From NCBI GenBank assembly GCA_003990765.1, contig RBNJ01000097.1, positions 1 to 41,764 of the forward strand: a stretch of DNA of 41,764 bases, in the 5' to 3' direction. The notes under the pieces are model-generated. The model ran no database searches and had not been told where the DNA came from. It saw nothing but the letters and a program-made list of their open reading frames with translations. Positions 193-22,420 of the stretch are shown in pieces. Source of the stretch: Jimgerdemannia flammicorona (Eukaryota). Every line of letters starts with the position of its first letter. The stretch's first letter is position 1. Position numbers and translations under genes: made by a program.

Positions 193-223
193 ATTGAATA
201 GATATTGTAGAAGAGACCCCAAC

Positions 224-2138: not shown

Positions 2139-2220
2139 GTTGTTAGTCGTCGGACACCAAAAACGTTGAAGAAAGTGTTGTCTGAGTCTTGTGTAACCTG
2201 AATGTTACTGGAGAAAGATG

Positions 2221-2295: not shown

Positions 2296-2561
2296 TATAA
2301 GTGCACAATCTCCAAGGTACTGAAATCACATGCAATATCTGAACAAATCTGGAAATCACCTGTACAATCATGAAGCTGAGTCAAACCAAAGTCACAGCAC
2401 ACAAAGCTGAGTCAATACAAAGTCAGGAAATACATGATTTATACAAACAGAATCTTACCAATTAGGATCAAATATATATATACCAAGCACCAAGACATGT
2501 TGAAATACAGAACTATAACAAATCAAACAAACAACCTAAACTCCTAAACATATACACAAAC

Positions 2562-3652
2562 ATGACCACTGAGATCTACAACCACATCTGTACTGATATT
2601 TGGAATACCATTATCAACTAAGCCACACCCCCTCTGCCTCTTATGAATATCCATAGCCTAGTACCCCTCTACTTTGTGGAAGCTTGATGGAATGCCCTGA
2701 ACATGCTTAGTGAGGCCCACCAAATCAGACAAATCTCAAGCTACTACCAGATCAGCAGCCTCCTGGAAGACATGGTTGAATACTACTATGATATAGATAT
2801 TACCCAGATGTCTCAACACTAGAAGCTCATCACCTGCAAACACTGAGAACTCTTTTATAAGTATAGCACTATTATTCCCTACCTTCAAGTTACTACCAGT
2901 AAAATGATTGCCACTCTGTTCTATAGCCAAATTGATGATGTGATACAAGAACTCAACCACAAGTATATAGAGTATGTTCAGACCACAGATAGAACCTTTT
3001 CACCCCCTGATAACTATATCCTGCAAATGCCCAAAGTAGGATATATCATAAAGGATGTCTATAATATAATCTGATTCAACAATAATAAAGCAGAAGACAA
3101 TGATCCCTCTAATGCTGATATGACCTTGAGTCAAGAATCCCTATCAATTCTGATCACTCTGCCAATACTACTAATGAACTTACAATAGTTCATAACCACC
3201 TATGAGACTTATTGGAATAATGACTACTGGCATGAATACTAATCTGTATTCACCTCTAATTATTTTAACTATAATGAAGAGATAGGAGAATACAACCTAT
3301 ATCTCCAAACAACCCTAAAGATTGAATCAACCACTCCACCACCTGAGTATGAGCAACATGAACCACAACCACCAGCTTACTATAACCCATGACTCATAGT
3401 ACTGTAACTTATATATAGATGATATGCAGACAGCAAATCTGATGAAAGTGAAGATGATACACCCCTCCTTTACCCACCAACTCTATACCCAGCATATGAG
3501 ACAGATGATACTATTCTGTGAGATGGTGATGAAGTCTCAATATATTATTACCTCAGTGAACAGGGAGAATTAATCTGTTCCTAGATGACTACTTTATCAG
3601 AGATGATATTATTGATAGTGATGTCATCAAAGACTACCCAGACAGTGTCTAA
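2562..3652 (+). pseudogene. LTR (U3)-encoded protein of unknown function, 5' LTR copy
   Basis: ATG in an A-rich context (ACAAACATG). Reads MTTEIYNHICTDIWNTIIN*ATPPLPLMNIHSLVPLYFVEA*WNALN...TTPPPEYEQHEPQPPAYY...DYPDSV*. Stops are attributable to C>T/G>A changes; small indels occur only in the last quarter. Confidence 0.75.
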
Positions 3653-3841
3653 ATCTATAAATAGCTTAACAGTCATAGTATAGTTAGATTAGTCTTATAT
3701 GACATGACTGTAAACTGACTCAGCAGTCAGACAATTCCTTGATATATCAGATCACACTTGTACTACATAACTACATTCTCACTCAGCAAGACACTAAGTG
3801 CTATATCCATATTCAGTATAGTTCAGATAGCCCCTCACTAG

Positions 3842-3972
3842 TATAAATACCTCCTCTCCCAGACCTCAGAATCTCAGACTTGAACAATCTGAACACAACT
3901 TCTGAACACTTTCCCATAATATCTCTTTATACAACTACTCCTAATATAGCAATATTATAAATAGCAAATAAA
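3842..3972 (+). promoter_or_regulatory. Gypsy-1 LTR TATA box (3842-3847) and poly(A) signal (3967-3972), placing the U3/R/U5 boundaries
   Basis: TATAAA followed about 125 bp later by AATAAA; both conserved in the 3' LTR (~16333 and ~16455). Confidence 0.65.
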
Positions 3973-4322
3973 CCTATTTAATAATCCACAAACCACTTTT
4001 AAGTAAATCTGCTCCCCATTAGGTTCCACTTCTAACCCTGTTACAAAATTTCCTAATTGGGTATTGTCTGCAGCAATATGCTGATTCAACTAAGCTGGTC
4101 TTAGTTTCTTGAACTTTCTAAAATATGGAAAATTCTGAACATCCAGAACTAGTCCAAATAAGGACTTTGATTGAGATGTTAACCCAATCTTGAAATCAAT
4201 AAGCATAGAGGACATACTCTATATGAAATTGATCTTGACCTTAAGAAAATGGTCATCCAGAATATCTCAAACTTCCAGAAAGCCACATAATAGTTATCCT
4301 AACAAGTAACCCTCTTACAACT

Positions 4323-4334
4323 TGGTAGCAGCAG
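4323..4334 (+). promoter_or_regulatory. Primer-binding site, probably tRNA-iMet
   Basis: TGGTAGCAGCAG, 3 nt after the LTR end. TGGTA implies a tRNA with U72-A73-CCA, consistent with the A1:U72 pair of initiator tRNA. Confidence 0.7.
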
Positions 4335-5285
4335 TTTACAATCCAATCTTACTTCAAGATGCTTTCTTACCCTACTATAAACCTTTCTGAGAATTCCTAT
4401 AAGTTGGTATAAAGCCCAACCTCTGAACTGGAATCTATCCCAAACTATCTGAAAATCTGGAGAGAATTGAACCTAATGTACAAGGACAATTTGACTTCCA
4501 TATCTGCAACAAGTGGGACAAACTTCATTCAAAGAAAGAAGTACTCTAGTTAAATCAGCAAATAGGTAAAACTCTATATACTGATCTCCTTACTCTACAC
4601 TCAGCAAGTCAAGATGAAGAGAGTCTTATAGAAATCTTCTTTATTCTTCTCAACAAGAGTTTTGTCAGCTCTACAAATCCAAGTGACCTAGGACAACTAG
4701 CAGCAGTCTTTCTAGCCATAGTTCCTCACAAAGCCCAAGTCTCTGTAGCCAAGTAGCTCAACTCTACTAATTTTCACCACACCAGGACTAAGACCACATT
4801 ATACTACTGCTTTCAGAATAGCAAGGCCTGCCATATTCTTAAGGAAGAAGCAAGAGAAACTCTCCATCAACAGCCCAACCCTGAACCTGAAGCAGGCCTA
4901 GCTATAGCCCTACCTGAACCTGAAACTAATACTGAACCAGAACTTGACTTTGAATTAAGTCCTTCTGAAATCAGATATATAACTGATTCTATCTACTTTG
5001 ATACTGAGCAAACCCAACTATATGGGGGCCAAACTGAAGAGGAGAAGGAGTATCTCAGTAAATTCCATCCTAGATACACTACCAAAGGAGATGTACCTCC
5101 ATCAGGACAGAACACACCTATATAGCAACAGACAGCTAGATATTGAGCCCTTACTCCAGACCCACAACTACTACTCCAGCAACTTACACAGACTTAAAGA
5201 ATACCCTTACACTCTATATTAGTATCTCAAGTATGTAGTACCAGTAATACCACTAGCAATAGTCCAACTACCTCCAGTAAACAAC

Positions 5286-6271
5286 ATGGCAAACCAACAG
5301 ATTCTAGATCTTATAGCCCAGGTAGCCATAATGGTAGCAACCATTACTGCTTTAGCTGAACAGATCTGACCAACCAAAAATCTGAGCCTATCTACCTTCA
5401 ATGGTACTATACAAGAAGTCCAAAGCTTCATTAGTGTAGTTGATACCAACTTCGAAGCCAATCAATGGACAAATGAGCAAGTTACTGACTGCCTTCTGAC
5501 AAACAATCAAGACTACACTCTGGAACAACTCTTTGCTACTACTTCAGCCTATGTCTGATAAGTTGTTATATTCTTCTGAGGATCTGCCAAAGAATAGTGG
5601 TGAACCCTTTCTGAAAAACCTCTCACATGGGACACCTGACCTGCAGTAGTTGCCCAGAATGCAGCAAATAATACCCCAGGATATGGAGCCCATCCTGCAG
5701 CCCCTAGACTCAAACAACTCATGATTGCTCAATACCATAGCGAAATCATGATCACTGAATCTCAAGTTAAATCTGCAATCTCAAATTTGATGTACATGGT
5801 AAGGAGTAATTCAAAACCTTCTGTACAAAACTTGAGTCACTCCTGAACACTGTTGGTCTAAAGTATATTGCCAATGATGAAGCATGAAATAGTACAAGAG
5901 CAGATCATTTATTTGATATACTGCCTGAATGGCTTACTAGAAAAATCTGAGAGCAAGGCTGCCTAGTTGGTTGTGATCACCAACAATAGTACTTGGTAAG
6001 AATTAAGACTATGGTCAAGCAAATCCTAACAGCTGGACCAATTCTGCCCTGAAGACAATTCAACAACAAGGAAAAAACTTGGACTAAGAAAGAAGAACCC
6101 AAGCATGAAGCATCTCAAGCTCCCTCCACATCTACCTCATGGATACCCAGAAATCATGAATCTACCCAGCCAAGTATCTTCAAGAAACTCACCAAAGGAG
6201 AAAGAAATAAACTTCAAAGAAGTGGAGTATACTTTTATTGCCAAAAGACAGGACACATGGCCAGTGTCTGC
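5286..6271 (+). pseudogene. gag: Gypsy-1 gag (capsid and CCHC zinc knuckle), degenerate
   Basis: MANQQILDLIAQV...LSTFNGTIQEVQSFISVV is a Gypsy capsid-like start. YFYCQKTGHMASVC at 6230-6271 fits CX2CX4HX4C with the first Cys changed TGC>TAC. Confidence 0.8.
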
Positions 6272-6349
6272 CCTAATCAAAAACCCCAAATAGCAACATG
6301 GACTACTGTTACTACTCTGTACCACCTCAACAACCTGACTACCAGAACA

Positions 6350-6757
6350 CTGGACTTTATTAAGTTCAGGCAAACTGCCAAGGTCCCAACTAAAGGAAGT
6401 CAAAAGGCAGCTGGATATGATCTGTATGCAGCCAAAGAAGCTACAGTCTCCAACTGAGAAGTCAAGCAAGTCTATATGGGAATCAGCATCCAAATCTCTG
6501 AAGGATATGTTGGAAGAATATACTGTTACAGCAGCCTAGCATTGAGAGGACTCTCAGTAGAAGAAGAAGTCATTGATGAAGATTATATAGGCAAAATTAT
6601 TGTTCTCATCTGAAATCACAGTTGGACATCATTCAAGATCCCTATTGGTTTCTGTATTGCACAGATTCTATTTGAGAAAATTGAGTCAACTCTAATAGTC
6701 AAGGAAGTCCCTGAACTACTACTCACCATTTGAGGATCCAGAGGATTTGGCTCATTG
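6350..6757 (+). pseudogene. dut: dUTPase domain of Gypsy-1, between the zinc knuckle and the protease
   Basis: All five trimeric dUTPase motifs are in one frame: AAGYDL, C(Y)SSLA (RSGLA), EVIDEDYIG (GVIDxDYxG), CIAQI (RIAQL), *GSRGFGS (RGxxGFGS). Confidence 0.92.
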
Positions 6758-6976
6758 AACAAGGCCCCAGTCCAACCTATCATGAACAAAGAAGAACAAT
6801 TCTATAAGAAAATTGAAGATAGATATATACCTGGTGGCTGATGCCCCCATAGCATTAGAATGTACTCTTCTTGAATAATTGTCAATTGCTTCTCATATAT
6901 CAATGAACTGACTCAAAGAAGAACTAATAGAAGGAAAGCTCCTATAGCTGAAATCACTACCATTGGATCAGACAAA

Positions 6977-7193
6977 CTGCTTACACTTCAAGCTTTTGTC
7001 AACTGAGCACCTGTCAAGATTATGATAGACAGCAGTATCTCAGGCATCTTCATCAATGAAGAAACAGCCAACAGACTCAAGGTCCTGACCTCCTCAGTAT
7101 AATAAACTCAAGCAGTTGCTATAGTTGATGGAACCTCTCATATCATTAGCAAGGAAGTCCACAATCTGCTCTTCAAAATTGGTGACTACTGAG

Positions 7194-7252
<59 letters not shown>

Positions 7253-9810
7253 GTCACTTGGACTCTTTCTTAATTACACCCATCTATCCTATATAAGTAC
7301 AGTGAACCCATCCCCTATCCAAACCCCCTAGGGGGGCCCCTCTCCCCTACCCCTTCTTGACAAAACACCACTCTATCAAATATAATCCCCATCCTCCCAC
7401 CACTCTGTTCACATATCCTTGCCACCAAACCTTGCTGCCACCCCCCTGAAGGACCCCAACCTGTCCACCATCCAGTCATCAGATCCCCCAACAGCTCCTC
7501 CCACCTTAAAACCTTCTTCTGTAGTCTCATCTACTGCCCCTCCTCAAACATAAATAGCCAATGTCCCGCCAATCCCACCCAAACTTCTAATACCCACCTG
7601 ACAGTGAGCCAACTATCCCCCACCCCCCCCACCAGCCGAGATCTCAAGTCCTCCCAGCGATCCCCTTCACCCACTGGCCTGCACTCCACACCCAGTCTAT
7701 TCTCTATTTCAACCCAAAAGTCCACCAAAACCTCACACACTTCCAGCCAATGTTCTGGTGTCTGCACCAAACCCCCAGCTTGCCCTACATTGTAACACTC
7801 CTCTCAATCAAAACAGCCACCATCCACCAGATGCCTAGTGCAGAAATTCAGCATAACATTCCTCCACAGCATTCGCCACCACACCACCCAGAACTTGGGG
7901 GGAAGCCACTGCCAAACCTCAGCACTCCAAGACCAGATACCTGCCTAGTCCCACTCCTTGCTGATCCCAACTGCCTGCCAACTGCTCAGCCAAAGATCCT
8001 GGCCAAGACCCTGCTGACACTCCACTCCATCCCCAATATCAAAAGCAGTAAGTAGAGCACCCCCCAGGAGTAGTCTATCCCATTGCTACATATGAGGACC
8101 CCACAACACCTCCCCCTCATTGCCTTGCAATTCTGTGTACTCCATTGATCACTCCCTACCAAAAGCCCTTAAATCACAGCCACCAAGTTCCATTGAGCCC
8201 TTCCAAAGAGAGTAGATCTCCTGAGGACCCTCAGGGGGAGGTTCTCATCTCCCACACCTTCTGCATCAGAAGTACCCAACCCCCTCCCTGTAGTTCAGCC
8301 GCTCTCTTCAATCACCAGGCTTACAAGCAGTGTAACCTCTTAGGGAAATCCACAAGACCAAGACCTCCCCTGTCCACTGGTGTCGCAAGAGTATCCCAAC
8401 TGATCTGGGACCTCCTCCCTGCCCAAATCCAATCCCTAGCCACCTTTGTCAGCCTCTTCACCACCCAAGCTGGGAAGTCTAGGTGGTATACCACATACCA
8501 CAGCTTGGGGAATCAGTATATATTCAGAATTGATACCTGCCCTGCTAGAGAGATATGGCAGCCTCCCCAACCTCGAAGGGCCTCCCCCCAAATAGCCACC
8601 CTGCTCTCCCACCACACTCATGGCAAGACAGAACCATACATAGAGAGGAAGATGTCCAGATACCATACCACTTCACCAGTAGGGACAATTGTTCCAATGA
8701 TGTCCCCACCCACCAGCCCATTCCCTAGCACCATAGTCTCACACTTATGCCAGTTGAGCTTTGCCCCAGAGTGATCCTCATACCATTCCACCATCTCCTT
8801 AAGTGCCTCGACATCTGCCACAGACCCAAGGCCAACCACCATATCATCTGCAAAGGCTCCCACCTTCCACACTATGCCAAAGATAGAGAGCCCCACCACC
8901 TTCTGGTGAATCCTATCCATTAATGATTCCAATGAGAGAGCATAAAGAATAGGGGACAAGGGGTCCCCCTGAGGAACCCCTCTTCTCAAGGTAAATACCA
9001 GACCATGGTGATCATTACACATCAGTACCGCCCAACTGCCCTTGAGCAGATTCACCATAGAAGCCTGAAATCCTGGAGGAACACCAATATGATCCAACAC
9101 CTTGCCCAGCCAAACCCGCCAGACCTGGTCATAGGCCTTCTTCTGGTCCAAAAAGACCAACCTTCCATCCAGGCCACAAGCCTGGGCCCCTTCAATGACA
9201 CCATGCACCCAAGCAGTCCCATCTCTTATAAGTCTGCCTCCAACAAAGCCCCACTGCTCCTCCCCCAGCACATGTTGGGCAACCTTCTACAGCCTTGCAA
9301 AAACCACCTTAGTCACCATCTTCCTGTCTATGTCCAAAAGCATGATTGGTCACCAGTTCTTCTAGTCTTCTCTCCTCCCCTTGTCTTTGTACAATAAAGC
9401 CACCAGCCCAAGGTCCTGCTCTCCAACCCACTCACCACTCTGAAGAACATGATCACAGAGAGCAGCCATCTCCCCCAAAATGCTGGAGACCTTGACTATC
9501 TTCTTCCAGAAGTCCCACAGTAGTCCATCCTCCCCTGGTGCTGTTCCAGTTTTAGTTGCCACAAGGACACTCTGGACCTCCTCACCTCACACTGGCAAGG
9601 CCAAGTCATCCAGTCCAACCACTTGCAGCAGCCTCCATTCTCCTAATGCATCTTCAATAGCTACCTCCTCAGCACCCCCATTGACTACTGAGTACATGTT
9701 ACTCTCCAGATCATACCATTCCCTAATAATGAAATTATCCTTAGAACCCCATAGTTAAAACAAGAGAACCCTGTGATCGATTGGGTAAACCATTTTCTGA
9801 CCATCAAGAA
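6977..9810 (+). pseudogene. Gypsy-1 aspartic protease, split by LINE-E (coding parts ~6977-7195 and 9695-9810)
   Basis: KIMIDSSISGIFI (decayed DSGA motif) before the insertion; EIILRTP*LKQENPVIDW (ILGxPWL...P.IDW motif) after it. Confidence 0.85.
7196..9681 (-). mobile_element. LINE-E: 5'-truncated L1/Tx1-type copy (RT and C-terminal part of ORF2) inserted in the Gypsy-1 protease
   Basis: Poly(T) at 7208-7249 preceded by (TA)n; exact 13-bp TSD TGACTACTGAGTA (7183-7195 / 9682-9694); RT motifs TAPGEDGL, LVFLDQKKAYD, RGVPQGDPLSP, AFADD, SGAKLN; C-terminal QTPEHWLEVC. Confidence 0.95.
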
Positions 9811-12055
9811 GAGATGCTACAACTTCAAACTGCAAGGTGAAAAGGACCCACTCAGTTCCAGTGACCCTGGACCAAAGATCACCCACATCAATAAGCTACA
9901 ACTCAAGAAATTGGCCAAGAAATGTCCTCTCTTTGCCATCTGCATCTATCCATCCAAAGGAGAACTTGAGAACTCTGAAGAAGACTTTTTCAAAGTTGAC
10001 AGCTGTATCAGACCCCTACTCCAGAAATTCTGAGATATCTTCCCAAAGAAACTTCTAAATGGCCTACCACCTAAATGAGCAGTAGACTATATCATCAAAA
10101 CCATCACAGATGCCAAGCCAGCCTTCAAATCAATCTACCACATATCTCTGAAAGAAATAAATGTACTCAAGAAGGAAATTGATGAACTTCTAGAATAAGG
10201 ATTCATCAAACCCAGTATATTACCCTATGGTGCACTAGTCCTCTTTGTTGTCAAAAAAGGAGAAGACCTGTGAATGTGTATTGATTACTGTAACCTCAAT
10301 GGACAGATCATCAAGAACTGTTGTCTGCTATCCAGAATCAATAAAATATTCAATAGGCTTACCAACCCATAATTCATAAGCTCTTTTGACCTGTGAAATA
10401 GTTACTGGCAAATTGCAATAAAAGAAGTAGATACATATCTACAAGACAGTCTTCCAAACTTGCTATGGACACTTCAAGTTCCTGGTTATGCCTTTTGGCT
10501 TAACTAATGCTTCTGCAACCTTCCAGACTCTGATGAATACCATCCTGCACCCATATCTGAACAAATTTGTTATTGTCTATAATGATAACATTCTAGTCTT
10601 CAGCAAAACCCTGGAGGAACATCTCAAACATCTTTAACTAGTACTACTGAAACTCCAAGAAAACTGACTCTTTGTAAAACTCAGCAAATGTGAATTTCTC
10701 AATCAAAGTGGACTCCAGCAAAATCTCAGCAATCAAGGATTGGCTCAGACCAAAGAAGCTGAAAGATCTCCAGTCATTCCTGGGGTTAGCAAACTATTAC
10801 AGATGATTTGTTGCCAACTTTACCAAGATTACTACTGCCCTTACCAAAATGACCAAGCACAATAAGAAAGAAGAATAGCTGTAGACTATGAAACAAGAAA
10901 AAGACTTCAACAATCTTGTAAATTAGGGACCCAAACAAGATACAGCCTTTTAAGTACTGAAAGATATATTGATAACTACTCCAGTGCTTCAAGTGGCAAA
11001 TCCTGCTCTATCATATGAAGTTACTACTAATGCCTCTGACCTAGCTCTTGGAGCAGTGCTCATGCAAGAAAGACACCCCATGGCCTATCACTCCCACAAG
11101 TTCAATGATGTCAAAATTAACTATATAACCCACAAGAAGAAAATACTAGCTATTGTAGACACTCTGATCAAATGGCCACCATATCTAGAAGAAGCACACT
11201 TCACTATATTGACTGATTACAAATCATTAGTCAACATCAAGACCCAGGCTACTCTTTCTTAAAATTAAGCCAGATGGATGAAAGTTCTCACCAACTTTGA
11301 CTATGAAATCCAGTATCACTCTGGCAAGAAAAATATTGTTACCAATGCAATCTCCAGACTACCAATCAAAGAAGTTATCCAAACCCTCACATTGGTTACC
11401 AACTCTATCATAGAATAAATTATCACAATATGTACTGATGATAAAGAAGCTCAAGCACTCCAAGAAATTCTGAGTAGTGACAATGCTGACAAGTATACCC
11501 AGTATAACCAACACCAACTGAAGGACAATACGATCTACTACAAGAACAGATTGTATGTTCCAAACAATCAAGATCTCTGAAGAACTATCCTATTCAAATA
11601 TCATAATGTCCCTATAGCTGGACATTTAGGATTTGACAAATACTATGAAGTTATTTCCCAAAACTTCTATTGGCCCTACATGGTAGATCAGCTCAAGACC
11701 TATATCACTTCCTGTGATACCTACCAATATAACAAGTCCTCAACACTAACAAAACCTGATCTACTCTACTCTATTCCAGTACTATCTGCTAATTGGGAAC
11801 AAATCTCTATAGACTTCATTGTACAACTACCCCAAACCAAGAATGGGAAAGATACAATTATTGTCATTGTGGTCTATCTAGCAAACAAGCCCACTATGCA
11901 TACCTTGGAATGAAACTTGTACTATCTACAGCCTTTCACTCTGAAACTGATGGCCAAACTGAAAGAATGAACCGAACTCTGGAACAAATGCTAAGGAACT
12001 ATGTTTCCTACAGACAAGATAATTGGCATGAATACCTCACTGCAGTCAAGTTTGC

Positions 12056-13636
12056 TTTTGTTTTTTTTTTTTTTTTTTTTTTTTTCTATAGGCTGTAGCC
12101 TTATTTATTAACTATCTATAATATGCTATATGTCCTTATGCAACATCAGTAGTCCCATTCTACCCCAATCTCAACCCACCTTCACATTTACCCAGCCTTA
12201 TATCTTTAGGGTGTGAGTTGCAACCTTACTGTCTGAGTAACTAGATCCTCCTACTCAGCCTGCCCCACCCAGTGGGTATGGGTTATGAGCCCCAACCACC
12301 TCAAGTACTTGGCATCTAGTGCATCTGACCTACCCCTATTAGTGCCTTCTGTCTTACCCATCTAGCCCATCTTATCTGTCTTACCTGCTTATATTGCCCA
12401 TGTTATCCATATTGCCATCTTGTTATCTTACCCATCTTACCCATCTTGCCTGTCTTGCCTATCTTGCCTGTCTTGCCCACTCATATTGCCTGTATTGCCT
12501 GTATTACCCATGTTGCCCATGTTACTCATATTGCCCATTTTGCCCATTTAGTCTGTCTTGTCTATATTATTTATCTTAGCATCTGCCTGTCTTGCCTATA
12601 TCACCCATCTTGCCATCTTGTCCATCTTGCCCATCTTGCCTGTCTTGCTCACCCATGTTACCCATGTTGTCTATATTGCCCATTTTGCCCATGTTGCCTA
12701 TGTTGCCTATATTGCCTGTGTTGTCTATATTGTCTATATTGCCTGTATTGCCTGCCCATATTGCCTGTATTGCCCATGTTACCCATTTTGCCCATTTTGC
12801 CCATCTTTCTCATATTGTCTGTCTTACTGTCTACCCATCTTGCCTATGTCACCCATCTTACCATCTTGCCATCTTGTCTATCTTACTCATCTTATCTGTC
12901 TTGCCCATCTTGCCTGTCTTGCCTATGTTACCATCTTGTCATCTTGCCATCTTGTCCATCTTGTCTGTCTTACCTGTCTTATCTGTCTTGCCCATCTTGC
13001 CTACCTGTATTGCCTGTGTTGTCTGTATTGTCCATGTTGCTCATATTGCCTATATTGCCCATTTTTCCCATTTTGTCCATATCACCTATCTTGCCATCTG
13101 CCCATCTTGCCTAATGTCACTCATCTTGCCATCTTTCTGTCTTGCCCATCTTGTCTATCTTACCCATCTTGCCCATCTTGCTTGCCTGTATTGCCCATAT
13201 TGTCCATGCTGCCTGTATTGCTCATATTGCCTGTATTGTCTGTATTGCCTATATTGTCCATATTGTCTATTTTGCCCATCTTGCCCATGTTACCTATCTT
13301 GTTGTCTGCCTATCTTGTCCCTGTCACCTGTCTTACCATATTGTCTATCTTGGCCATCTTGTCCATCTTACCTCTCTTGCCCCTTTTGCCTGTCTTGTCA
13401 CTGTCTTGCCATCTTGCTGTCTTGCCATCTTGCCCAAAATTCTTGAAATCTTTGTAACTTGCTGAAACTAGAAGCTATGGTTACACTGAAAAGTCCAGAT
13501 GGGACTCCTATACCTAAGGAATGAGGTACATCTGTTGGTGCTCCTTAGAGCCTATGCTTGTGGCCTCCAAAACTTGAGATGCTCACCCTCTTGGTGGGCT
13601 TAGATGTGTGGGAGCAGTATGCTGTCTTCTGTCAAC
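12056..13636 (-). mobile_element. Non-autonomous poly(A) retroposon (1581 bp): unique head, 9-mer VNTR and unique tail
   Basis: Exact 16-bp TSD CTGCAGTCAAGTTTGC (12040-12055 / 13637-13652); poly(T) at 12056-12085; minus-strand AATAAA at 12104-12109. The integrase frame resumes after the right TSD (AVKFAYNNS). Confidence 0.93.
12349..13436. repeat. Degenerate 8-9-bp tandem repeat (~1.1 kb)
   Basis: Units CCCATCTTG, CCTGTCTTG, CCTGTATTG and CCCATGTTG are all derivable from CCCGT(C/A)TTG by CpG decay and a few other changes. Confidence 0.95.
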
Positions 13637-14169
13637 CTGCAGTCAAGTTTGCCTATAATAACAGCAAGCAAGCCTCTCTTGGAATGACCTCATTCTTTGC
13701 CAATACAGGACAAAACCCAACCACTTCTCTGACACTTATCTGGACTGCTGACAAACCCTCTACAGTTGAAGCTATTGAAGAATTCCTACTCTGAATGCAC
13801 AATATAAGCCAGATCACAATTGAGAACTTATTATGAGCCCAAGAACAACAGTTACAGTATGATAACCAATACTACCAAGAAGAAACATTCAATATCAGAG
13901 AAAAGGTCCTACTAGACATCTGAGGATACTAAGTTGACAACCTTAAACACAGACTATCTACATAGCTGAATAGCAAGTTTATTGGATTATTCAAAGTTAT
14001 CATACAAGTCTCTCCAACCTCCTACAAATTGGTGTTACCAGACACTATTAAGGTCCACCCAGTCTTTAATGTCCAACATCTCAAGCAATATAATGAAAAT
14101 GATAACAAGCTATTCCCAAACTGAACCACCAAACCACCTGCACCTATTATTATTAATGATCAAGAAGAA

Positions 14170-14331
14170 TATAAAGTTGAACAAATCCTCAATAATTGCA
14201 GCCACAAGAACCATCCAGAGTATCTTATCAAATGGAAAGATTATTCAATCCATGATGCAACATAGGAACCCAAGACTAATCTCTAGAATACCACTGACTT
14301 AGTTCAAGAATATGATTCCTTGAACAACTGA
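14170..14331 (+). other. Chromodomain at the integrase C-terminus
   Basis: YKVEQILNNCSHKNHPEYLIKWKDYSIHDAT*EPKTNL matches the chromodomain pattern Y.VE.IL...YL.KW.GY...TWEP..NL; the aromatic-cage Y, W and Y are present. Confidence 0.92.
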
Positions 14332-14734
14332 AACCTGAATACTCTTGTATCTATCAGTATATACCATATATTACTCTCCTGAATATTATAATTTTCACAA
14401 ACAAAATCAAGAACTCAGTAAGACAAGACAAAAGAATATCAACTCTCTAGAAAAATAGCAAAACTGAAAGTAAGCCTATTCTCCCCATACTACTGGTGGG
14501 AAATAAGGTATAGATATTTAAAAATTCCTTAGAGGAAATTCTCTAGCAGTGAATGATATCAGTGTATGGTATCAAACACATGACCCTTTAATATATAAAT
14601 CTAATATGTTAGGCAACTATACTACAAGCATACTACTTTCTGAGAAAAATAGACTTTACCAGACTTTTGATCTCCCAAATAGTGTAACAATACTAGAACA
14701 AAATTAGAAGGCCCCAACAAGGACATCAAAAGCT

Positions 14735-14747
14735 AAGAAGGGGAGAG
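14735..14747 (+). promoter_or_regulatory. Polypurine tract of Gypsy-1
   Basis: AAGAAGGGGAGAG, 1 nt before the TG that starts the 3' LTR. Confidence 0.9.
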
Positions 14748-14748
14748 T

Positions 14749-16818
14749 TGTAAGCACACAAACTCCAAGCCACTGAAATCACACATCACTCTCCAAACAA
14801 GCCACTGAAATCATATGTGACATCTGAACAAATCTGGAAATCACCTGCACAATCATGAAGCTAAGTCAAACCAAAGTCATAGTGCATAAAGCTGAGTCAA
14901 TACAAAGTCATGGAATAAAAGATTTATACAAACAGAATCTTATCAATCAGAACCAAATATATATACTGAGCACCAAGATGTATTGAAATACAGAACTACA
15001 ACAAACCAAACAAACAACCCCAACTCCTGAATATATACACAAATATGACCACTGAGATCTACAATCACATCCATGCTGATATTTGGAATACCATTGTCAA
15101 CTGAGCCACACCCCCTCTGCCTCTCATCAATATTCATAGTCTAGTACCCCTCTACTTCATGGAAGCCTGATGGAATACTCTGAACATACTTAGTGAGGCC
15201 CACTGAATCAGACAAATCTCAAGCTACTATCAGATTGACTGACTCCTGGAAGACATGGTTGAACATTATCATGATATAGATATTACCCAGATGTCTCAAC
15301 ACTAGAAGCTCATTGCCTGCAAATACTGAGAACTCTTTTATGAGTATAGCACTGTTATTTCCTACCTTTGAGTTACTACCAGTGAAATGATTGCCACTCT
15401 ATCCTATGGCCAAATTAATGACATGATACAAGAACTCAATCATAAGTATATTGAGTATATTCAGACCACAGACCGAACTTTCCCACAGCCTGATGACCAC
15501 ATCCTGCAAATGCTCCAAATAGAATATACTATGAAGGATATCTATGATATAATCTAATTTGATAATAATGAAGCAGAAGATAATGATCCCTTTGATACCA
15601 ATATGACCTCAAGCCAAGGATCCCTGTCAACCCTGATCACTCTGCCAATACTGCCAATAAACTTACAATAGTTCATAACCACCTACAAGACTTATTGGGA
15701 TAATGATCACTAGTACAAATACCAACCCACATTCACCCCCAATTATTTCAACTATAATGAAGAGACAGGAGAATACAACTTGTATCTCCAGACAATCCTC
15801 AAGATTGAACCAACCACTCTACCACCTGAGTATGAGTGACATGAACAACAGCCACTAGCTTATTACAACCCCATGACTTATAGTGCTGTAAATTATAGAA
15901 GATATGCAGACAGCAAATCTGATGAAAGCAAAGATAATACACCCCTCCTTTGCCCACCAACTCCATACCCAGTATATGAGATAGATGATACTATCCTGTG
16001 GGACAGTAATAAAGTCCCAATGTATTATTACCTCAGTAAATAGGGAGAATTAATCCATAAACAACTCTTCCTAGATGACTACTTCATCAGAGATGATGTC
16101 ATCAATAGTGATGTTATATAAGACTACCCAGATAGTATCTAAATCTGTAGATAGCTTAGTAGTCATAGTATAGTTGGATTAGCCTTATATGACATGACTG
16201 TGAACTGACTCAGCAGTCAGACAATTCCTTGATATATCAGATCATACTTGTACTATATAACTGCATTCCAACTCAGCAAGATACTAAGTACTATATCCAT
16301 ATTCAGCATAGTTCAGATAGTCCCTCACTAGTATAAATATCCCCTCTCCCAGACCTCAGAATCTCAGACTTGAACAATCTGAACACAACTTCGGAACACT
16401 TTCCCACAATATCCCTTCACAACTACTCTTAGTATAGCAATATCATGAATAGTGAATAAATTTATTTAATAATCCACAAACTTCTCTTAAGTAAATCTGC
16501 TCCTCATTAGGTTCTACTTCTAACCCTGTCACAAAATTTCCTAATTGGGTATTGTCTGCAGCAATATGCCAATTCAACTAAGCTGGTCTTAGTTTCTTGA
16601 ACTTCCTGAAATATGGAAAATTCTGAACATCCAGAACTAGTCCAAATAAGGACTTTGGTTGAGATGTCAATCTGATCTTGAAATCAATAAGTATAGAGGA
16701 TGTACTCTATATGAAATTGATCTTGACCTTAAGAAAATAGTTATCTAGAATATCCAGAACTTCCAGAAAACCCTTCCAGAACTATGTAACAGTTACTCTA
16801 ATAAGTAACCCTCTTATA
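14749..16818 (+). repeat. Gypsy-1 3' LTR (2070 bp)
   Basis: TGTAAG...CTCTTATA (terminal CA changed to TA); direct repeat of 2296-4319; followed by the TSD. Confidence 0.95.
15045..16142 (+). pseudogene. LTR (U3)-encoded protein of unknown function, 3' LTR copy (366 codons, no frameshift)
   Basis: ATG at 15045 to TAA at 16140-16142 in one frame. Several internal TGA stops align with CAA in the 5' LTR copy, implying ancestral CGA. Confidence 0.78.
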
Positions 16819-16823
16819 TAAAC

Positions 16824-19800
16824 CCTCTCTCTCTTGCAAATACATTTTACTAGATTCTGATAGTCCCCCTAACCCAATCTCCACTCTCTCTACAAATCAT
16901 TCAAAATGTCAAGTATTAACTATTCCCAACATGCTACCCTAGCTCCAACTGCAACCCACTGGCCCTCCTCAATGATATGAAGCCAATGACTGGCCAGCCC
17001 TATCCAAATTACCAGGGCCCATCACAAGGTCAACCATTCATTCCCAACTCTGCCCACCAACCTATGCTGGAGGTCTCCCCATTGCCCTCCTTCCCCTCCC
17101 ACCAGTGGTTGCAATCTCAGACTACTAGTGATACTGTGCCAAAACTCTTCCAAAACTTCACACTTCCCTAGCCAATGTTCAGGCATTTGTACCACTCCCC
17201 CTTCTGGTCAATGTCCATACATTCCTTACACTCAAATATGCTGTCTACCACCAAGTACTCTGACCAATAGTTCAGCATCACATTCTGCCTTAGGAATCTC
17301 CACCATATTATCCAGAACTTGGGGGGAAGCCACTGCATTACTCTCTTGCTACGAAGCCAAACACCATTCTAGTCTCACTTCTTACCAATCTCCACCCTTT
17401 GCTATGCTATAGACCACATATCCCCCACAAGTCCCCAAATATATTCTATTCTATCGCCAAGCTGAAAATCCTCCACCAATATATCTCTCAGCAGTAGCCA
17501 GTCTCATCTCCACATCTATAGTCCCCAGTCCTCCTCTCTCTCATCACTCCACTACTGAAGTCCAATTCTCCTTGCACTATCCACCACTCCTGACTAAAAA
17601 TCTTTGTATTGTATGCTCCTGCTCCCATCTATAGCCACCATCACAAGCAGATCACCGGTTGCTCCTCAAGGAGAATACTGGACTTCCCACACCCTCTGTA
17701 TGAGTGGCACCCACTCTCAGCCTCTTAACTCACTTGCCCTCTTCAGTCACCATACTCTCAGACAATATAGGTACTTGGTAAAGTCTACTAAGCCCAGCCC
17801 TCCTCTATCAACAGGTAAAGTCAGAACTTTCCAGCCTATCTAACTTTGCTGTCTGGTCCAAATCCACGATCTTGCCATCTTCAGAAGTGGCCTGACCACC
17901 CATACTGGGAAGTCTAGATGATACCCCACATACCACAGCCTTGGCAGCCAATACAAATTCAGCACCATTACCCTTCCTGCCAAGGATATATGCTGACCAC
18001 CCCACCTCAAGAGAACATTCCCCCATACTAGTAGCTACTGTTCCCACCATGCACAGGGCATAAGAGACCCATATACTGAAAAGTAGATCCCCAAGTACTG
18101 AACTGGTTCTTCTGCTAGAACTACTGTTCCAATCACCTTATTGCCAACTATTCTGCTGTCTAGTACTAGAGTCTCATATTTGTCAGTTGAGCTTAGCACC
18201 TGAGCCCCTCTCATACCATTCCACAGTCCTCCTTAATTCCTCCACATCCTCTAATGAACCCAGTCCAACCACCATATTATCCACAAAAGCCCCCACCTTC
18301 CAATTAATTCCCAAAATGTCCAAACTCCTAATTTGATACCAGATCCTGTCCAATAGGGGCTCTAAGAAAACAGTGTATAGGATGGGTGATAAAGAATCCC
18401 CTTGCAGCACCCTATGACCTTGCAGAAAAGTCACACCTCTGTGCCTATTTACTACCAATACTGCTTGACTGTTTTCCAATAGACTGATTAATAACCTCCT
18501 GAACTCTGGGGGAACTCCCACCCATTTCAGCACTCCCTTCAGCCAGACCCTCCTCACTCTGTCATATGCCTTCTCCTGATCCAGAAACACTAACTAGTCA
18601 TTAACCCCAACTGCCTGAGCCCCTTCAATTACTCTATAAACCTAAGCAGTTCCATCTCAGATCAACTGACCACCAACAAATTCCCTCTGCTCTACTCTTA
18701 GTATCTGCTGAGTGATCCCCTACAGTCTAGTCACCAAGATCTGTATCACCAGCTTGTGGTCTATATCAAGAAGCATGATCAGTCACCAGTTCTTTCAATC
18801 TTCTCTTCTCCCCTTATTCTTATTGAACAAAGAGACCAGCCCCAGGCACTGGCCCCCAATTCAAGTTCCAGATCAAAGGACCTTATTACTCATTACCATC
18901 ATCTCCTCCAATACCACCTCCACCCCAGCCATCTTCTTCCAAAAATCCCAGAGAAGCCCATCCTCTCCTGGAGCTGTCCCCTTACTTGTCAAAGCCAAGA
19001 CCTTGTATACTTCCTCCCACCACACTGGGTCTCCCAGTGTCTCCAGGCCCAGAGCTGGGTCTAGATGCCAATCCTCCAACTGCCATTCAATGTTTAGAGC
19101 ATCCTCACCCACTTCTTCATCACTCCATAAATTCCTATAGTAAGTCCTCAGCAATCCCAAAATCTTAGGAGTCTCTGCCACCATCTCCCCATCCTTATCC
19201 AAAATACCATCCCACCACTGTCTGGTTCTCTGAGCTTGAAGCAACTGTGAAAGAAATCTAGTAGGCCTCTCCCCCTCCTCCAACCCCTGCCACTACAACC
19301 ATGTCACCATCCCCTTTAGCTGAACCTCTTCCTCTATTTATAACACTTCCTTTAGCTCATCTACTTCTTTTTGTATCCTCAGAATTTACCAATTGACTGC
19401 TCCCCAATCCTCCAGCAACTCCACCCATCTCTCCAGAAGTGCTGCCAATCTCTATGAAGCCCATAGCACTTGCTGCCTCCACTGAACACTCCTTTCTTTC
19501 TCTGCCTCCCTCCAGTATCTCTGAGCACTTGATTTCAGCCACTGCTAGTGATCTCCAATCACCAATCCCTGCTCCTGCCATCTATCAATCTTCACAATAA
19601 CTTCTACCTTCTAGTCCATCTATAAGGAACCATCCTCCAACAAAGAAGCATTCAATCGCCAATGTCCAGGCCCATCCCTACTTCCCCCAAATCTCCCACT
19701 TCCTATCAGACCCCAGTGATCTGATCATGAGCACCAAACCACCTCCAGCATATCTCAGAAAATCACTCCCCAGCACCCTGCTGTCAACACCCAGTCAATC

Positions 19801-22420
19801 CTGGAGCCCAGCCCTGACACTCAGTGAGTATAAATTCAGTAATCTACCCAAAACTGTCACCCCTAGTCAACTAAGGAGCTCAACCTCTCAATCTCCATCC
19901 AATCATCCAACCCACCACTTCTGCCTCTCATTCCTCTCCTGCTATCAGTCCTGTCTATCCTAGTATTATATACTATATTGAAATAACCACCCAGACAATC
20001 AATCCCTGCCTCACCCATAACACTAGCCTTTCTCAAGCCTCTGATCCAATCTACATATTCCCCCCTCTCAGCCAGGCAATAATATGATCCAACAGTCAAA
20101 GGGTTCCACCCAGGCCTCTTCCATACTCCCCACACCAATCTACTCCCCCAATGTCCAATATCTCCAATGTCCTGTATCCCCTTTCAAACCAGAATGCCCA
20201 CCCACTCAGTCCACATAGCTGCCCCACCCTATTCTCTAGTCCAGTTCTGTAAATCTATATCTACCCCATACCACACATTCTGTAGTAAGAAGAGATCCAC
20301 ATCTAGCCCCTTCAACCAGCCAAAGATATTCCTTTACCATACCACACCCCTCAATCCATTCATATTCAAAGAAAAGATTCTAGTTATACTGTTCGTATTG
20401 AATAATATTTGATATTGAGAACCCATCCTAGTACTCCATACTCATCTCATCACTAGTCAGTTCTAAGCACTACTCCACCTCCAACTCCTCTTCCACTACA
20501 GCCTGAGCATCCAGTGCTTCTAAGATTTCCTGACACTCCACCCCATCCATCACCTCCATTTCTATCTGATAATCCATGCATAACCAATCTCCACTTCTCC
20601 AAACCCTTTCTCAATCTCTATAAGTATATTGCCTGATCATTCACAATCTCTCAAAGGGCCTCCTCCCTCTGATCATCAATCTGATACTCCTCCAACTCTA
20701 AGAGCACTGCCAAGATCTCATTTCTAATCTTTTTTGGCACCTCCTCACTATGGAGAATTTCCTCCCAGTACCTATCACTTAGAACCCAGAAGTCCTCTCT
20801 CCCTAGCTCCTCAGCCACCACCCCCTCCAGAGTCTTCTACAGCCACTTCTCTTCATTCACCACCTCAGCAACACTCTGGGCGACCCTTTCAACTCCCACC
20901 ACAGGGTCCACCAAAGCACTCCTCCTCCCTGACTCATCCCACTCCTCTTCTAGCACAACCAGGAGTTCCTCCTCACCACCCTCCCCACCCAGGACACTAT
21001 ACTGAGAGTGTACTCCCTCTACCATTTTAGCATCCTCCTCTACACTGTCTCATCTCTTCTCACTTGATCTACCCTATGCCACACCCTGAGCCAGCCTGCT
21101 CTCCCCAGCCCAGACACTCTCTCTCAATCCAGCACTATCTTTGTCTACTCCACCACCTACTATACTCTCTCTCAATTTCTCCATCAGCTCCTTCTGGATT
21201 CACCTCCCCTGTAACTTCTCCCAGACTACCTTGTCTATCCTAATTCTCTTTTTATCTACAATCTCCACCATTGTCTTAACTTCATACTCCTTCCAAGCCA
21301 ATCTTCTCCTCTCTACTGCTCCTGTCAGATCCTTGAGAGCCTCCAACAAGTCCTCTTCTTCCTCTGGTGTCCCTTTCACCCATGAGACCTTATATTCATC
21401 AGGCCCCACTTAAGAGTTGCTGGCCAGTCTCTCATCTTCCCTGTATTCTCTCTTCCAGCCAGTCTTACTCTGATATTGACATCTCTTGTTCAGAGTTCAG
21501 TACCCTCTCAGACTCTGAACCCAATATCTATAATCTCCCCATACTCCTTGACTGCCTCCACAATCAGCTCCCTGGCCCTCTCCCTCAACACCATAGAAAG
21601 ATCCAATACTGTCAACTATACCACTTGGAGGTCCCAGTACATGCACCTGGCCATAGGAACCACCACTCACCCACGATCACCCCCTTCTCCATGGCCTCCA
21701 ATATTGATGCCTCTTTCTCAAATCCAATCTCGATCTCTTCTTTCCCCTTCAAGAACTTCACTGAAGCTGCCCCTTTCACCTCCTGTACCACTAGCCCCAG
21801 AATCATCCTTACAGTCACTTCTAAGCCTCAGAAGTACAATGTGATAGCAAATTCTAACCTTGACTTTTTGAGTAATGGTGCCAACACCATACCAGTCATG
21901 CCATCTGCCAGGTCCCCAGGCATCATGCCCTCCCTATGACCAACAACTATCACATCTGGTTTTTTTTCCAGATTCTCAGTCACAGCTCCATCAGCAGTCA
22001 TATCTTTAGCCCCTACTCCCTCCCTCTCCCTACTGCCCAAACCTCCTATGAAAGCCCCTCTCTGTCCCCCAACTGAAGCTGTCAATATCTTCTCCAGTCC
22101 TAACCAACTATTCAGACCAGATGCCATTCTCCCCATCTTGACCTTGTCAGCAAAAGATGTCCTCTCCCCTCCTTGTTGCCTCAATCTGCCCCTCCCCCTA
22201 CCACTAATGCTACAGCCAGCCATAGAAGGCTCTGGTATCTCCAACTGTCTCCTCACCTCCTCTCTACATGCTACTAGTCCAAGGCACTGCTGCTCCTCTA
22301 GATGATATACTAATCAGTACATTCATTGCTGTCTATGTTAATAGTCTCCTTTCACCAAAAACATTGCAAAAAGTGTTGTCTGAGTCTTGTGTCATCTGAA
22401 CGTTACTGGTGAAAGGTATG
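16824..22420 (-). mobile_element. LINE-B: near full-length degenerate L1/Tx1-type element (ORF1 ~20428-22340; ORF2 from 20396 leftwards)
   Basis: ORF1 is homologous to that of copy A. The ORF2 start has decayed to ACG at 20396. Motifs GERPTRFL, KGTAPGEDGL, FLDQEKAYDRV, LQGDSLSP and AFVDN (AFADD); shared 5' leader. Confidence 0.93.

Follow-up and report, generated by a model that had tools for sequence, protein, structure and literature searches.

Positions 12056-13636 of the window (the whole stretch of DNA that was analysed, 41,764 nucleotides long) contain a 1,581-bp insert that very probably arose by retroposition from a non-coding, polyadenylated RNA carrying a ~1.1-kb degenerate 9-nt minisatellite, and that was placed in trans by an L1-like LINE, whose endonuclease and reverse transcriptase (RT) carried out target-primed reverse transcription (TPRT). 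The sense strand of the insert is the minus strand, on which it reads, in this order, as a 200-bp head, the ~1.1-kb 9-nt array, a 263-bp tail and poly(A). The action of a LINE in trans by TPRT is well supported, since the insert has a target-site duplication (TSD) and poly(A), splits an integrase gene, lacks coding capacity, a Pol III head and terminal inverted repeats, and has as its neighbour a LINE copy, LINE D, with a poly(A) tail and a TSD of like length. The insertion event is of an ordinary kind, a well-preserved case of nested retroelement insertion; for annotation, it would show that this genome has LINE machinery able to mobilise poly(A) RNAs in trans.

Boundaries of the insert and its target site

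We observed a perfect 16-bp TSD, CTGCAGTCAAGTTTGC, with 0 mismatches between its copies, which exactly flanks the insert on its poly(A) side and on its 5' side. Within the window the 16-mer has exactly two occurrences, and two or more matches were reached in 0 of 100 shuffles, even when 2 mismatches were allowed. The insert has no terminal inverted repeats. A first-pass annotation of this DNA had reported the perfect 16-bp TSD, the AATAAA and the poly(A), and all three are present at the positions listed here. It had also described a head of ~200 bp, a 9-mer array of ~1.1 kb and a tail of ~260 bp, and this three-part build held, with a head of 200 bp, an array at 12350-13436 and a tail of 263 bp.

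2313..16816, plus strand: decayed Ty3/gypsy LTR retrotransposon, host of the insert, recognised by its LTR pair and Pfam matches
11793..12055, plus strand: integrase frame up to the break (...IEF), matching residues 1252-1302 of Ty3 Gag-Pol (PDB 7q5b) with E 3.4e-08
12040..12055, no strand: TSD copy on the 3' side of the element's sense strand, an exact 16-mer that abuts the poly(A)
12056..12085, minus strand: poly(A) tail that reads A25-C-A4 in sense orientation, seen as a 30-nt T run (93%) on the plus strand
12086..12348, minus strand: unique 3' tail of 263 bp, non-coding, with no Pfam or Rfam match and no unusual structure
12104..12109, minus strand: AATAAA, a polyadenylation signal that precedes the poly(A) by 18 nt
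12350..13436, minus strand: degenerate 9-nt minisatellite of ~123 units, sense consensus GGCAAGATG, from TRF, a unit table, self-matches and autocorrelation
13437..13636, minus strand: unique 5' head of 200 bp, without tRNA, 5S or 7SL similarity, A/B box or ORF
13637..13652, no strand: TSD copy on the 5' side, an exact 16-mer
13639..13791, plus strand: integrase frame resuming (AVKFAYNNSKQ...), in frame with the left part when the insert and a single TSD copy are taken out

The insert splits the integrase of the host Gypsy, in which Pfam identified a dUTPase remnant, RT, RNase H, integrase and SH3_Tf2-1. The LTRs of this element, at 2313-4317 and 14798-16816, are 86.5% identical (87.7% over aligned bases). 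When the two halves of the integrase were compared with homologues, the left flank matched all representatives tested (150/150), and both flanks adjoined exactly (offset 0) in 69 of the 71 homologues matched by both, these 71 having a right flank with E <=1e-3 among the 150 best of 5,199 matches. At the level of sequence, the alignments showed that the target is uninterrupted in relatives (empty site). Insertion by TPRT, which the first-pass annotation had proposed, is backed by this contiguous target in the integrase homologues together with the TSD, the poly(A) and the AATAAA. The integrase piece had no match when it was searched in the protein database at 'longer' lengths.

The differences between the LTRs of the host Gypsy are transitions in 222 of 245 cases (~91%) and cluster at C where the next base is G, A or C. 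The insert contains no CpG, where 66 would be expected, and the observed/expected ratio of CpG in the host Gypsy is 0.02-0.03. We had considered the perfect TSD and the near-pure poly(A) as signs of a young insertion, and found them uninformative given such transition-biased mutation. A perfect TSD is not proof of youth where ~91% of the local changes are transitions; since almost all of these fall on C or G and CpG has been erased, neither a pure poly(A) nor perfect AT-rich TSDs are a sign of recency here.

The tandem array and the unique ends

The array was detected by TRF as a period-9 repeat at 12412-13434 with 115.6 copies, 67% matches, 7% indels and a score of 280. Wrap-around alignment widened it to 12350-13436 and resolved 123 units, of which 94 are exactly 9 nt and 15 are 8 nt long; the units that depart from 9 nt number 29. 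The units have a GC content of 44%, and the lag-9 autocorrelation of the array is 0.61. The label VNTR, used in the first-pass annotation, serves here as no more than a name. Internal self-matches at long offsets revealed alternating blocks, which form higher-order repeats of roughly 200-320 bp. Because both edges of the array grade into unit-like sequence of the flanks, expansion in situ within one sequence fits better than a fusion of modules.

One sense frame of the array reads as Gly-X-Y and gave a sub-threshold match to Pfam Collagen (21.9 bits, with a cut-off of 27.2). Such a reading is the chance expectation for a G-rich 9-mer, and a collagen-like coding origin of the array was rejected on account of the frame breaks at the 29 units of other lengths and of the stop codons. 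The 301-aa antisense ORF of the array had no relative at E <=1e-3 among 8000 scored candidates of the protein database.

The three sense frames of the insert contain 34, 34 and 32 stops, the longest open stretch being 77 aa, and Pfam found nothing above threshold, RT included, in 18 peptides from the element. These results agree with the earlier view of a non-autonomous element with no RT. The absence of a Pol III head, likewise asserted before, was confirmed in three ways: ARAGORN found 0 tRNA genes in the element; Rfam gave only 4 matches to it, all with E >=1.7 and far below the gathering score, and no 7SL/Alu; and a scan of the head with A- and B-box consensus motifs gave 0 matches with up to 2 mismatches. 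The translated sense frames of the head contain no remnant of an ORF2 C-terminus by Pfam.

The head had been called structured and the tail hairpin-rich. The head folds with z = -0.56, and 52 of 200 shuffles were at least as good, so the description of the head was not upheld. In the tail, the CTGAGTA/TACTCAG hairpin at 12234-12259 does exist; the tail as a whole, however, folds worse than its shuffles (z = +1.29, with 181 of 200 at least as good). The term 'composite' also fell away, as neither head nor tail matches any other repeat, LINE or RNA family.

The LINE copies of the window and the proposed mechanism

The first-pass annotation had named local L1/Tx1-type LINEs as the mobilising machinery. 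L1-like LINEs are indeed present, with poly(A) tails and, in LINE D, a TSD of equal length; the affinity seen was to L1 only.

7208..9681, minus strand: LINE D, a 5'-truncated L1-like LINE nested in the same Gypsy (RVT_1 2.5e-19; RT at 8621-9286), standing for the candidate machinery of mobilisation

LINE D has the same orientation as the insert and lies in the same Gypsy. Its poly(A) is seen as T42 on the plus strand (7208-7249), and its TSD (7183-7198 and 9682-9697) matches at 15 of 16 positions and has the length of the TSD of the insert. The RT of LINE D is closest to proteins with the architecture Exo_endo_phos + RVT_1 + zf-RVT, and among solved structures its best match was human L1 ORF2p (E 2.7e-11), R2 giving E 3.2e-08. 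At ~2.4 kb, LINE D is shorter than the LINE copies A and B (~5.6 kb), 5' truncation being the rule for LINEs here. No intact ORF2 was found in the window, where all four LINE copies are decayed and Pfam finds RT fragments only. The relatives of the proteins of the neighbouring LINE and of the Gypsy belong to an early-diverging fungus and to plants, and others are environmental metagenome records.

We compared the tail of the insert with the 3' ends of LINE D and LINE B, the LINE family in the window. The observed score was equalled or exceeded by 742 and 414 of 2000 shuffles when aligned locally, and by 55 and 86 of 2000 when the alignment was anchored at the ends, none of which is significant; as a positive contrast, 0 of 2000 shuffles reached the score of the LINE D and LINE B 3' ends against each other. 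A shared 3' end of the form ATAG...hairpin...CTAT, noticed by eye in the insert and a LINE, was accordingly rejected. Since the tail shares no significant LINE 3' sequence, recognition of the RNA would run through the poly(A) alone.

According to the proposed mechanism, the plus strand of the Ty3/gypsy integrase gene would have been nicked after ...AAGTTTGC, and the freed 3' OH would have primed cDNA synthesis on the poly(A) tail that the RNA carried. The second strand would then have been cut 16 bp away, and repair would have yielded the 16-bp duplication. We infer that the proteins were supplied by the L1-like LINE family to which LINE D belongs and that the source RNA was a Pol II transcript, with position 13636 probably representing its true 5' end and no truncation point. 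The nick consensus of mammalian L1 is TTTT/AA. The nick site of the insert, TTTGC/CT, is unlike it, which counts against the proposed mechanism, as do the lack of an intact ORF2 in the window and of significant similarity between the tail and the LINE 3' ends; the report on Sadhu elements describes the consensus TTTT/AA for LINEs (PMC2848041).

Origin of the source RNA

Several readings of the source RNA were weighed. It is possible, and we hold to it only tentatively, that the insert belongs to a family of non-autonomous retroposons that is dispersed and evolved independently, with a tandem array at the centre, transcribed by Pol II and moved by the local L1-like LINEs, SVA-like in architecture and of a Sadhu- or Eg-R1-like kind. 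Consistent with this are the non-coding sense strand, the insert's own AATAAA, the lack of a Pol III head, and the long hierarchical array between unique ends, an arrangement less typical of mRNAs than of RNAs derived from repeats. The depletion of CpG, at a level equal to that of the surrounding old repeats, would also fit; however, it is equally expected of any sequence inside a silenced Gypsy. The rest of the window speaks against a family, as its other 40 kb contain no second copy of the head or the tail by blastn or tblastx, despite four LINE copies and at least three related LTRs. The best matches there had E 0.011 by blastn, on a 29-nt AT-rich stretch in the Gypsy LTR, and E 0.027 by tblastx. 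Moreover, head and tail match no known repeat, which leaves a 'composite' without support.

Further collections were searched for copies. A 22-nt word of the tail had 0 matches in metagenomes, and a 25-nt degenerate word of the array was found at 47 loci, none of which had a head or tail match in a BLAST comparison of the head, tail, array and whole window with all 47. We rejected these loci as related copies and regard the matches as chance, the six loci inspected being coding repeats of collagen-like, QDG, LPI or GKM type. In viral contigs, a head word and a tail-end word had 0 matches each; one locus matched by a word from the LINE 3' end was dismissed as chance, as its CpG content is normal and what it has in common with the window is only 29 nt long. 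A collection of 15 billion proteins lacked all ten ORFs that were looked up from the element and its junctions, the six of these look-ups that began at TTG (with L as first residue) being weak. The insert was thus seen as one copy in the window and in the metagenome, viral and protein collections.

The likeness to SVA that the first-pass annotation had put forward stood in one part and failed in the other. The SVA modules are a 5' hexamer repeat, an Alu-like region and a SINE-R or other 3' module, and the units of the SVA array are tens of bp long and GC-rich. Like SVA, LAVA, PVA and FVA, the insert is non-autonomous, has a tandem array in its middle that is bounded by unique 5' and 3' parts, carries AATAAA and poly(A) with a TSD of LINE-type length, and would be mobilised in trans by L1-type machinery, as described for SVA (PMC3287187). 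In contrast, the modules of SVA-type elements derive from known repeats (Alu-like, SINE-R, L1), whereas the ends of the insert match nothing and cannot be traced to other repeats. The 9-nt units, with 44% GC, also differ from those of SVA, and the 5' hexamer run is absent, the insert beginning with GTTGACAG. The resemblance to SVA is architectural only, with no homology. VNTR composites are described as specific to hominoid primates (PMC4432496, PMC7353768). It is a still more tentative idea, and a doubtful one, that the insert belongs to an undescribed non-autonomous Pol II-type family built around a long hierarchical 9-nt minisatellite and mobilised via poly(A) by L1-like LINEs in a non-primate genome, as a convergent counterpart of the hominoid SVA/LAVA. 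If the family is real, tandem-array-centred non-autonomous retroposons would be no hominoid peculiarity, and a second system would be at hand for asking whether the array aids mobilisation.

A family is also favoured by precedent, as Pol II-type non-autonomous retroposons without a small-RNA head are documented in the accounts of Sadhu (PMC2848041) and Eg-R1 (PMC6022598). The insert has the traits of this type: it is non-coding, has its own AAUAAA, shows no small-RNA similarity and carries a LINE-type TSD. The Sadhu elements of Arabidopsis are non-coding, with a poly(A) tract, a direct TSD of 7-16 bp and no similarity to tRNA, 5S or other small RNAs, and their mobilisation by LINE TPRT was inferred from the target sites (PMC2848041). 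Compared by description, the insert is like them in being non-coding and in its poly(A), its LINE-type TSD and its lack of small-RNA similarity. Sadhu is, however, a demonstrated multi-copy family with subfamilies, unlike the single copy seen here; its TSD starts A-rich, whereas that of the insert starts with GCAAAC; and the passages of PMC2848041 drawn on here describe no central minisatellite. Eg-R1/Egh24 of Blumeria graminis is classified as a SINE, yet is reported to have no A/B boxes, a functional AAUAAA and a polyadenylated RNA, and is counted among non-autonomous Pol II retroelements, a class regarded as poorly characterised (PMC6022598). By description, the insert is like Eg-R1 in having its own AATAAA and no A/B boxes. 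More than 3000 insertions of Eg-R1, with genomic copies that lack a poly(A) stretch, are reported (PMC6022598), in contrast with the one known copy and the 30-nt poly(A) of the insert. From SINEs of the usual kind the insert differs in having no tRNA, 5S or 7SL Pol III head and no 3' end shared with the LINE family of the window.

A further reading, which is possible but on balance doubtful, is that a Pol II transcript of the host, either a long non-coding RNA or a long 3' UTR with a chance minisatellite in it, was retrocopied as a single processed event, and that there is no family of transposable elements at all. The TSD, the poly(A) and the AATAAA are hallmarks of processed pseudogenes, and only a single copy was seen across the window and the collections searched. 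LINE-made processed pseudogenes, like orphan 3' transductions, are likewise single polyadenylated inserts with a TSD and without LINE sequence. The Gly-X-Y frame with its sub-threshold Collagen match leaves a faint possibility of ancestry from a repeat-coding exon, but the 32-34 stops per sense frame and the 29 of 123 units that are not 9 nt long mean that no lasting frame exists, and neither the head nor the tail yielded a protein family. The collagen-like reading is expected by chance, and the array matches in metagenomes are unrelated coding repeats without head or tail similarity. In comparison with the processed pseudogene of a coding gene, the insert lacks a remnant of a sense-strand ORF, the longest being 77 aa.

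It is rather unlikely that the insert derives from a LINE itself, either as a severely 5'-truncated copy of another LINE family with the array in a long 3' UTR or as an orphan 3' transduction, in which a LINE transcript reads through into flanking DNA, is polyadenylated downstream and is truncated until no LINE sequence remains. Both have precedent in L1, for which orphan transductions as well as UTRs with arrays are known, and 5' truncation is usual for LINEs here, as LINE D shows. The head and the tail, however, are unlike any part of the four LINE copies of the window at the DNA or protein level, the head has no ORF2 C-terminal remnant, and the 3' end of the insert is not significantly similar to the LINE 3' ends under conditions where LINE D and LINE B were recognised as alike (0/2000). 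The insert also differs from a 5'-truncated autonomous LINE in having no RT. A DNA-level insertion, a rearrangement or an assembly artefact flanked by a chance repeat, all without retroposition, is highly improbable, as no point in its support was found, the exact 16-bp duplication sits right at the poly(A) end, 69 of 71 homologues have the two flanks directly joined, and terminal inverted repeats are lacking.

Cases of minisatellites born inside transposable elements have been reviewed for Alu, B1 and others (PMC9659126). The array of the insert resembles them in that a short motif within a retroposed sequence seems to have expanded into it, although the carriers in the reviewed cases are known families (PMC9659126), unlike the carrier of this array.

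Anatomy of the insert and its target site

The insert of 1,581 bp runs on the minus strand from 13636 to 12056, exactly as placed by the first-pass annotation, and starts at its 5' end with GTTGACAGAAG... The three-part layout described there (a head of ~200 bp, a 9-mer array of ~1.1 kb and a tail of ~260 bp) agreed with the measured parts, as did the perfect 16-bp target-site duplication (TSD), the AATAAA and the poly(A).

Parts of the insert
13636-13437, minus: unique head, 200 bp
13436-12350, minus: array of 9-nt units
12348-12086, minus: unique tail, 263 bp, 3' end ...AATAAATAAGGCTACAGCCTATAG
12109-12104, minus: AATAAA, 18 nt 5' of the poly(A)
12085-12056, minus: poly(A) tail, A25-C-A4

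The 16-mer CTGCAGTCAAGTTTGC lies exactly at both borders of the insert (12040-12055 and 13637-13652) and nowhere else in the window, even at up to two mismatches; two matches were found in 0 of 100 shuffles. Terminal inverted repeats of the insert were searched for and none were found.

The insert interrupts the internal part of a decayed Ty3/gypsy retrotransposon, the host Gypsy (Gypsy-1), in which Pfam recognised the following order of domains on the plus strand, together with a dUTPase/zinc-knuckle remnant in the upstream part:

Features of the host Gypsy
2313-4317 and 14798-16816: Gypsy-1 LTRs of 2 kb, 86.5% identity by BLAST, 1752 of 1997 aligned bases identical
10431-10637, plus: RT
10954-11262, plus: RNase H
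11581-11913, plus: integrase zinc-binding domain
13966-14124, plus: SH3_Tf2-1 domain

The frame left of the insert aligns with residues 1252-1302 of Ty3 Gag-Pol (PDB 7q5b, E 3.4e-08), and the integrase frame restarts right of the insert as AVKFAYNNSKQASLGM... For an empty-site test, the left flank was searched against a representative protein library (5,199 hits at E <= 0.001), and each flank was BLASTed separately against the best 150 of these integrase hits, no joined sequence being built. The left flank matched 150/150 and the right flank 71/150. In 69 of the 71 homologues matched by both, the last left-flank residue and the duplicated right-flank residue fell on the same position; for the remaining two, the offsets were -131 and +586. 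Thus, the insert and one copy of the 16-mer have been added to an integrase gene that is continuous without them.

A dUTPase remnant is present upstream of RT in both LTR retrotransposons of the window (6053-6454 and 30959-31429), with Pfam E-values close to threshold (6.6e-4 and 1.5e-4). The second of these elements has LTR-like repeats at 25910-26988 and 34528-35625 that are 79% identical. The segment 24121-25097, 70-72% identical to the first ~kilobase of both Gypsy-1 LTRs, is possibly a solo LTR or an LTR of a related family, and 25187-25574 (388 bp) is palindromic, with 78% identity to its own reverse complement.

Array structure, coding capacity and folding

TRF reported the array as period 9 with 115.6 copies, 67% matches, 7% indels and a score of 280. 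Aligned by wrap-around to the sense consensus GGCAAGATG, the array resolved into 123 units, of which 94 have 9 nt, 15 have 8 nt and 14 have another length. The 94 clean 9-nt units comprise 49 different sequences, and the differences from the consensus are 143 transitions and 49 transversions. The dinucleotide at unit positions 8-9 was TG 46 times, CA 25 times, TA 20 times and CG never, the pattern expected if an ancestral CpG had decayed. Blocks of units with G at position 6 alternate with blocks carrying T, C or A there, and a GGTGAY variant unit returns about every 200-270 bp, a spacing with which the long-offset self-matches inside the array agree (for example 12352-13231 against 12616-13434, at 70.6%). 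The array is therefore hierarchical, in the manner of arrays that undergo unequal exchange. A review describes the origin of arrays within mobile elements as common (PMC9659126). The borders of the array are fuzzy: unit-like sequence covers the final ~25 nt of the head (CAAAGATTTCAAGAATTTTGG) and reaches into the start of the tail, suggesting that a local motif was expanded inside one sequence rather than that modules were fused.

The three sense frames contain 34, 34 and 32 stops and stay open for 77 aa at most. Every long ORF (261-301 aa) belongs to the antisense strand, whose low purine content makes stop codons infrequent, and no relatives of the array ORFs were found in protein collections. 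Pfam gave nothing above threshold for 18 peptides of the element; the sole near-match was Collagen (21.9 bits vs a cut-off of 27.2), in the sense frame where the 9-mer reads Gly-X-Y (GNI/GNM/GKM at 12576-12809, minus strand). A collagen-like coding origin of the array was set aside as a by-product of the motif, 29 of the 123 units being out of frame. ARAGORN detected no tRNA in the window, the best Rfam matches over 11900-13800 had E-values of at least 1.7, and A/B-box consensus scans of the head yielded nothing. The fold of the head was unremarkable (z -0.56), and that of the tail was weaker than its own shuffles (z +1.29).

The element thus has no recognisable RT, and its head no Pol III A/B boxes at consensus level, in agreement with the first-pass annotation. 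Its description of a "composite" with a "structured head" was not borne out by the unit-like array borders and the head fold, nor was that of a "hairpin-rich" tail by the tail fold, although the 7-bp hairpin is real.

LINE copies and a proposed route of mobilisation

The four LINE copies in the window are decayed and belong to one broad family; RT fragments are all that Pfam recognises in them.

LINE copies in the window
6-2217, minus: copy C
about 7208-9681, minus: copy D
16827-22415: copy A
36022 to window end: copy B

The RT of copy D (8621-9286, minus) was nearest to proteins joining Exo_endo_phos, RVT_1 and zf-RVT domains, with identities of 39% to the best match, 33% to an Ambispora leptoticha protein and 27-34% to plant L1-type proteins. 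Among solved structures it was nearest to human LINE-1 ORF2p (E 2.7e-11, vs 3.2e-08 for an R2 protein). These comparisons support an L1-like family, in keeping with the L1 part of the "L1/Tx1-type" LINEs proposed earlier. Copy D, which is 5'-truncated, is nested in the host Gypsy and points the same way as the element. Its end is an unbroken run of 42 A (T on the plus strand, 7208-7249), and it has a 16-bp TSD with one mismatch (15/16; 7183-7198 and 9682-9697), with (AT)5 between tail and TSD, on the plus-strand side before the T run. The match between copy D and the element in TSD length and poly(A) end is expected if one type of machinery was responsible for the two insertions.

The last 80 nt of the element had no significant likeness to the 3' ends of LINE D or B: 742 and 414 of 2000 shuffles scored as high or higher in local alignment, and 55 and 86 of 2000 when end-anchored. 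For the 3' ends of LINE D and LINE B compared with each other, 0 of 2000 shuffles reached the score, and D shares the 3' end ...AGTCCAAGTGACTAT with B at the window end. Since no significant 3'-end similarity links the element to LINE D or B, mobilisation would rest on the poly(A) tail. L1-type "relaxed" recognition works through the poly(A) tail, and the element RNA may have been mobilised in this way.

LINE copy C has a 504-aa open frame (ORF 690-2204) with a glycine-rich N-terminus and no Pfam family, a candidate ORF1 of the active LINE lineage. The GC skew of the LINE bodies is very strong, with per-kb values between -0.59 and +0.55, and their sense strand is G-rich and C-poor throughout; the plus strand is C-rich at 1-2000, 7000-9000 and 17000-22000 and G-rich at 22000-24000 and 36000-41000.

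Age and source of the element

CpG has nearly vanished from the window, with 100 CpG in 41.8 kb (observed/expected 0.055). LINE copy C, probably the youngest repeat in the window, holds 58 of them (0.42), and the old Gypsy and LINE copies have ratios of 0.02-0.08. The 245 differences between the LTRs comprise 222 transitions and 23 transversions. Variable C/T sites were followed by A (100), variable A/G (53, the CpG-derived class), C (37) or T (16); they are concentrated ahead of G, A and C and rare ahead of T. This looks like strong cytosine deamination or repeat-directed hypermutation and differs from classical RIP, as TpG and CpA are enriched, not depleted. The faultless TSD and the clean poly(A) would suggest a young insertion, a reading that is undermined by the local transition-dominated pattern: such a spectrum hardly touches A/T runs or a 16-mer that is AT-rich and free of CpG. 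Since the element has 0 CpG vs 66 expected, equal to the host Gypsy level (0.02-0.03) and below LINE D (0.075), its insertion dates back almost to the age of the host Gypsy, or else the source RNA was CpG-free beforehand.

We regard the insertion as genuine: a non-coding RNA bearing a minisatellite was retroposed by a LINE-type mechanism, an event of an ordinary kind that is well preserved here. The SVA-like reading of the first-pass annotation, a dedicated non-autonomous retroposon family, is possible but unproven, and we rate it as less likely than not. SVA and LAVA have the same architecture (a tandem array between unique 5' and 3' parts) and likewise combine AATAAA, poly(A) and TSD with a lack of coding capacity, whereas none of their modules occur in the element, whose units are 9 nt with 44% GC, and VNTR composites are described as hominoid-specific (PMC4432496, PMC7353768). 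The element is closer in kind to poorly characterised non-autonomous retroposons without a small-RNA head. Like Sadhu of Arabidopsis, described as non-coding with poly(A), LINE-type target sites and TSDs of 7-16 bp (PMC2848041), it is non-coding and has poly(A) and a 16-bp TSD. Like Eg-R1 of Blumeria, reported to have a functional AAUAAA, polyadenylated Pol II transcripts and no A/B boxes, it has AATAAA and lacks these boxes; unlike the >3000 copies of Eg-R1, which are reported to lack poly(A) in the genome, it has genomic poly(A) (PMC6022598). We take these as likenesses in architecture or kind and claim no membership.

Single-event retrocopying of a non-coding or UTR transcript is almost as likely as a family. 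In the search for further family members, neither the DNA nor the protein-level comparison revealed another head or tail elsewhere in the window, no relative came from exact-word scans of metagenome and viral collections, and neither part matched by BLAST any of the 47 loci of an array-word metagenome scan; the lack of another copy across ~40 kb of such repeat-rich sequence speaks solely against a very high copy number. A LINE-derived origin, as a truncated member of another LINE family with the array in its 3' UTR or as an orphan 3' transduction, is improbable even when both forms are taken jointly.

The array-word loci were rejected as relatives, six inspected ones being unrelated coding repeats at the match. 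The array word catches collagen-like genes because one sense frame of the 9-mer is Gly-X-Y; unrelated collagen-like and QDG-repeat genes were present at loci L010, L011, L012 and L045, and L011, on a 94.8-kb contig, has a 2007-aa open frame across the 6,025 bases examined.
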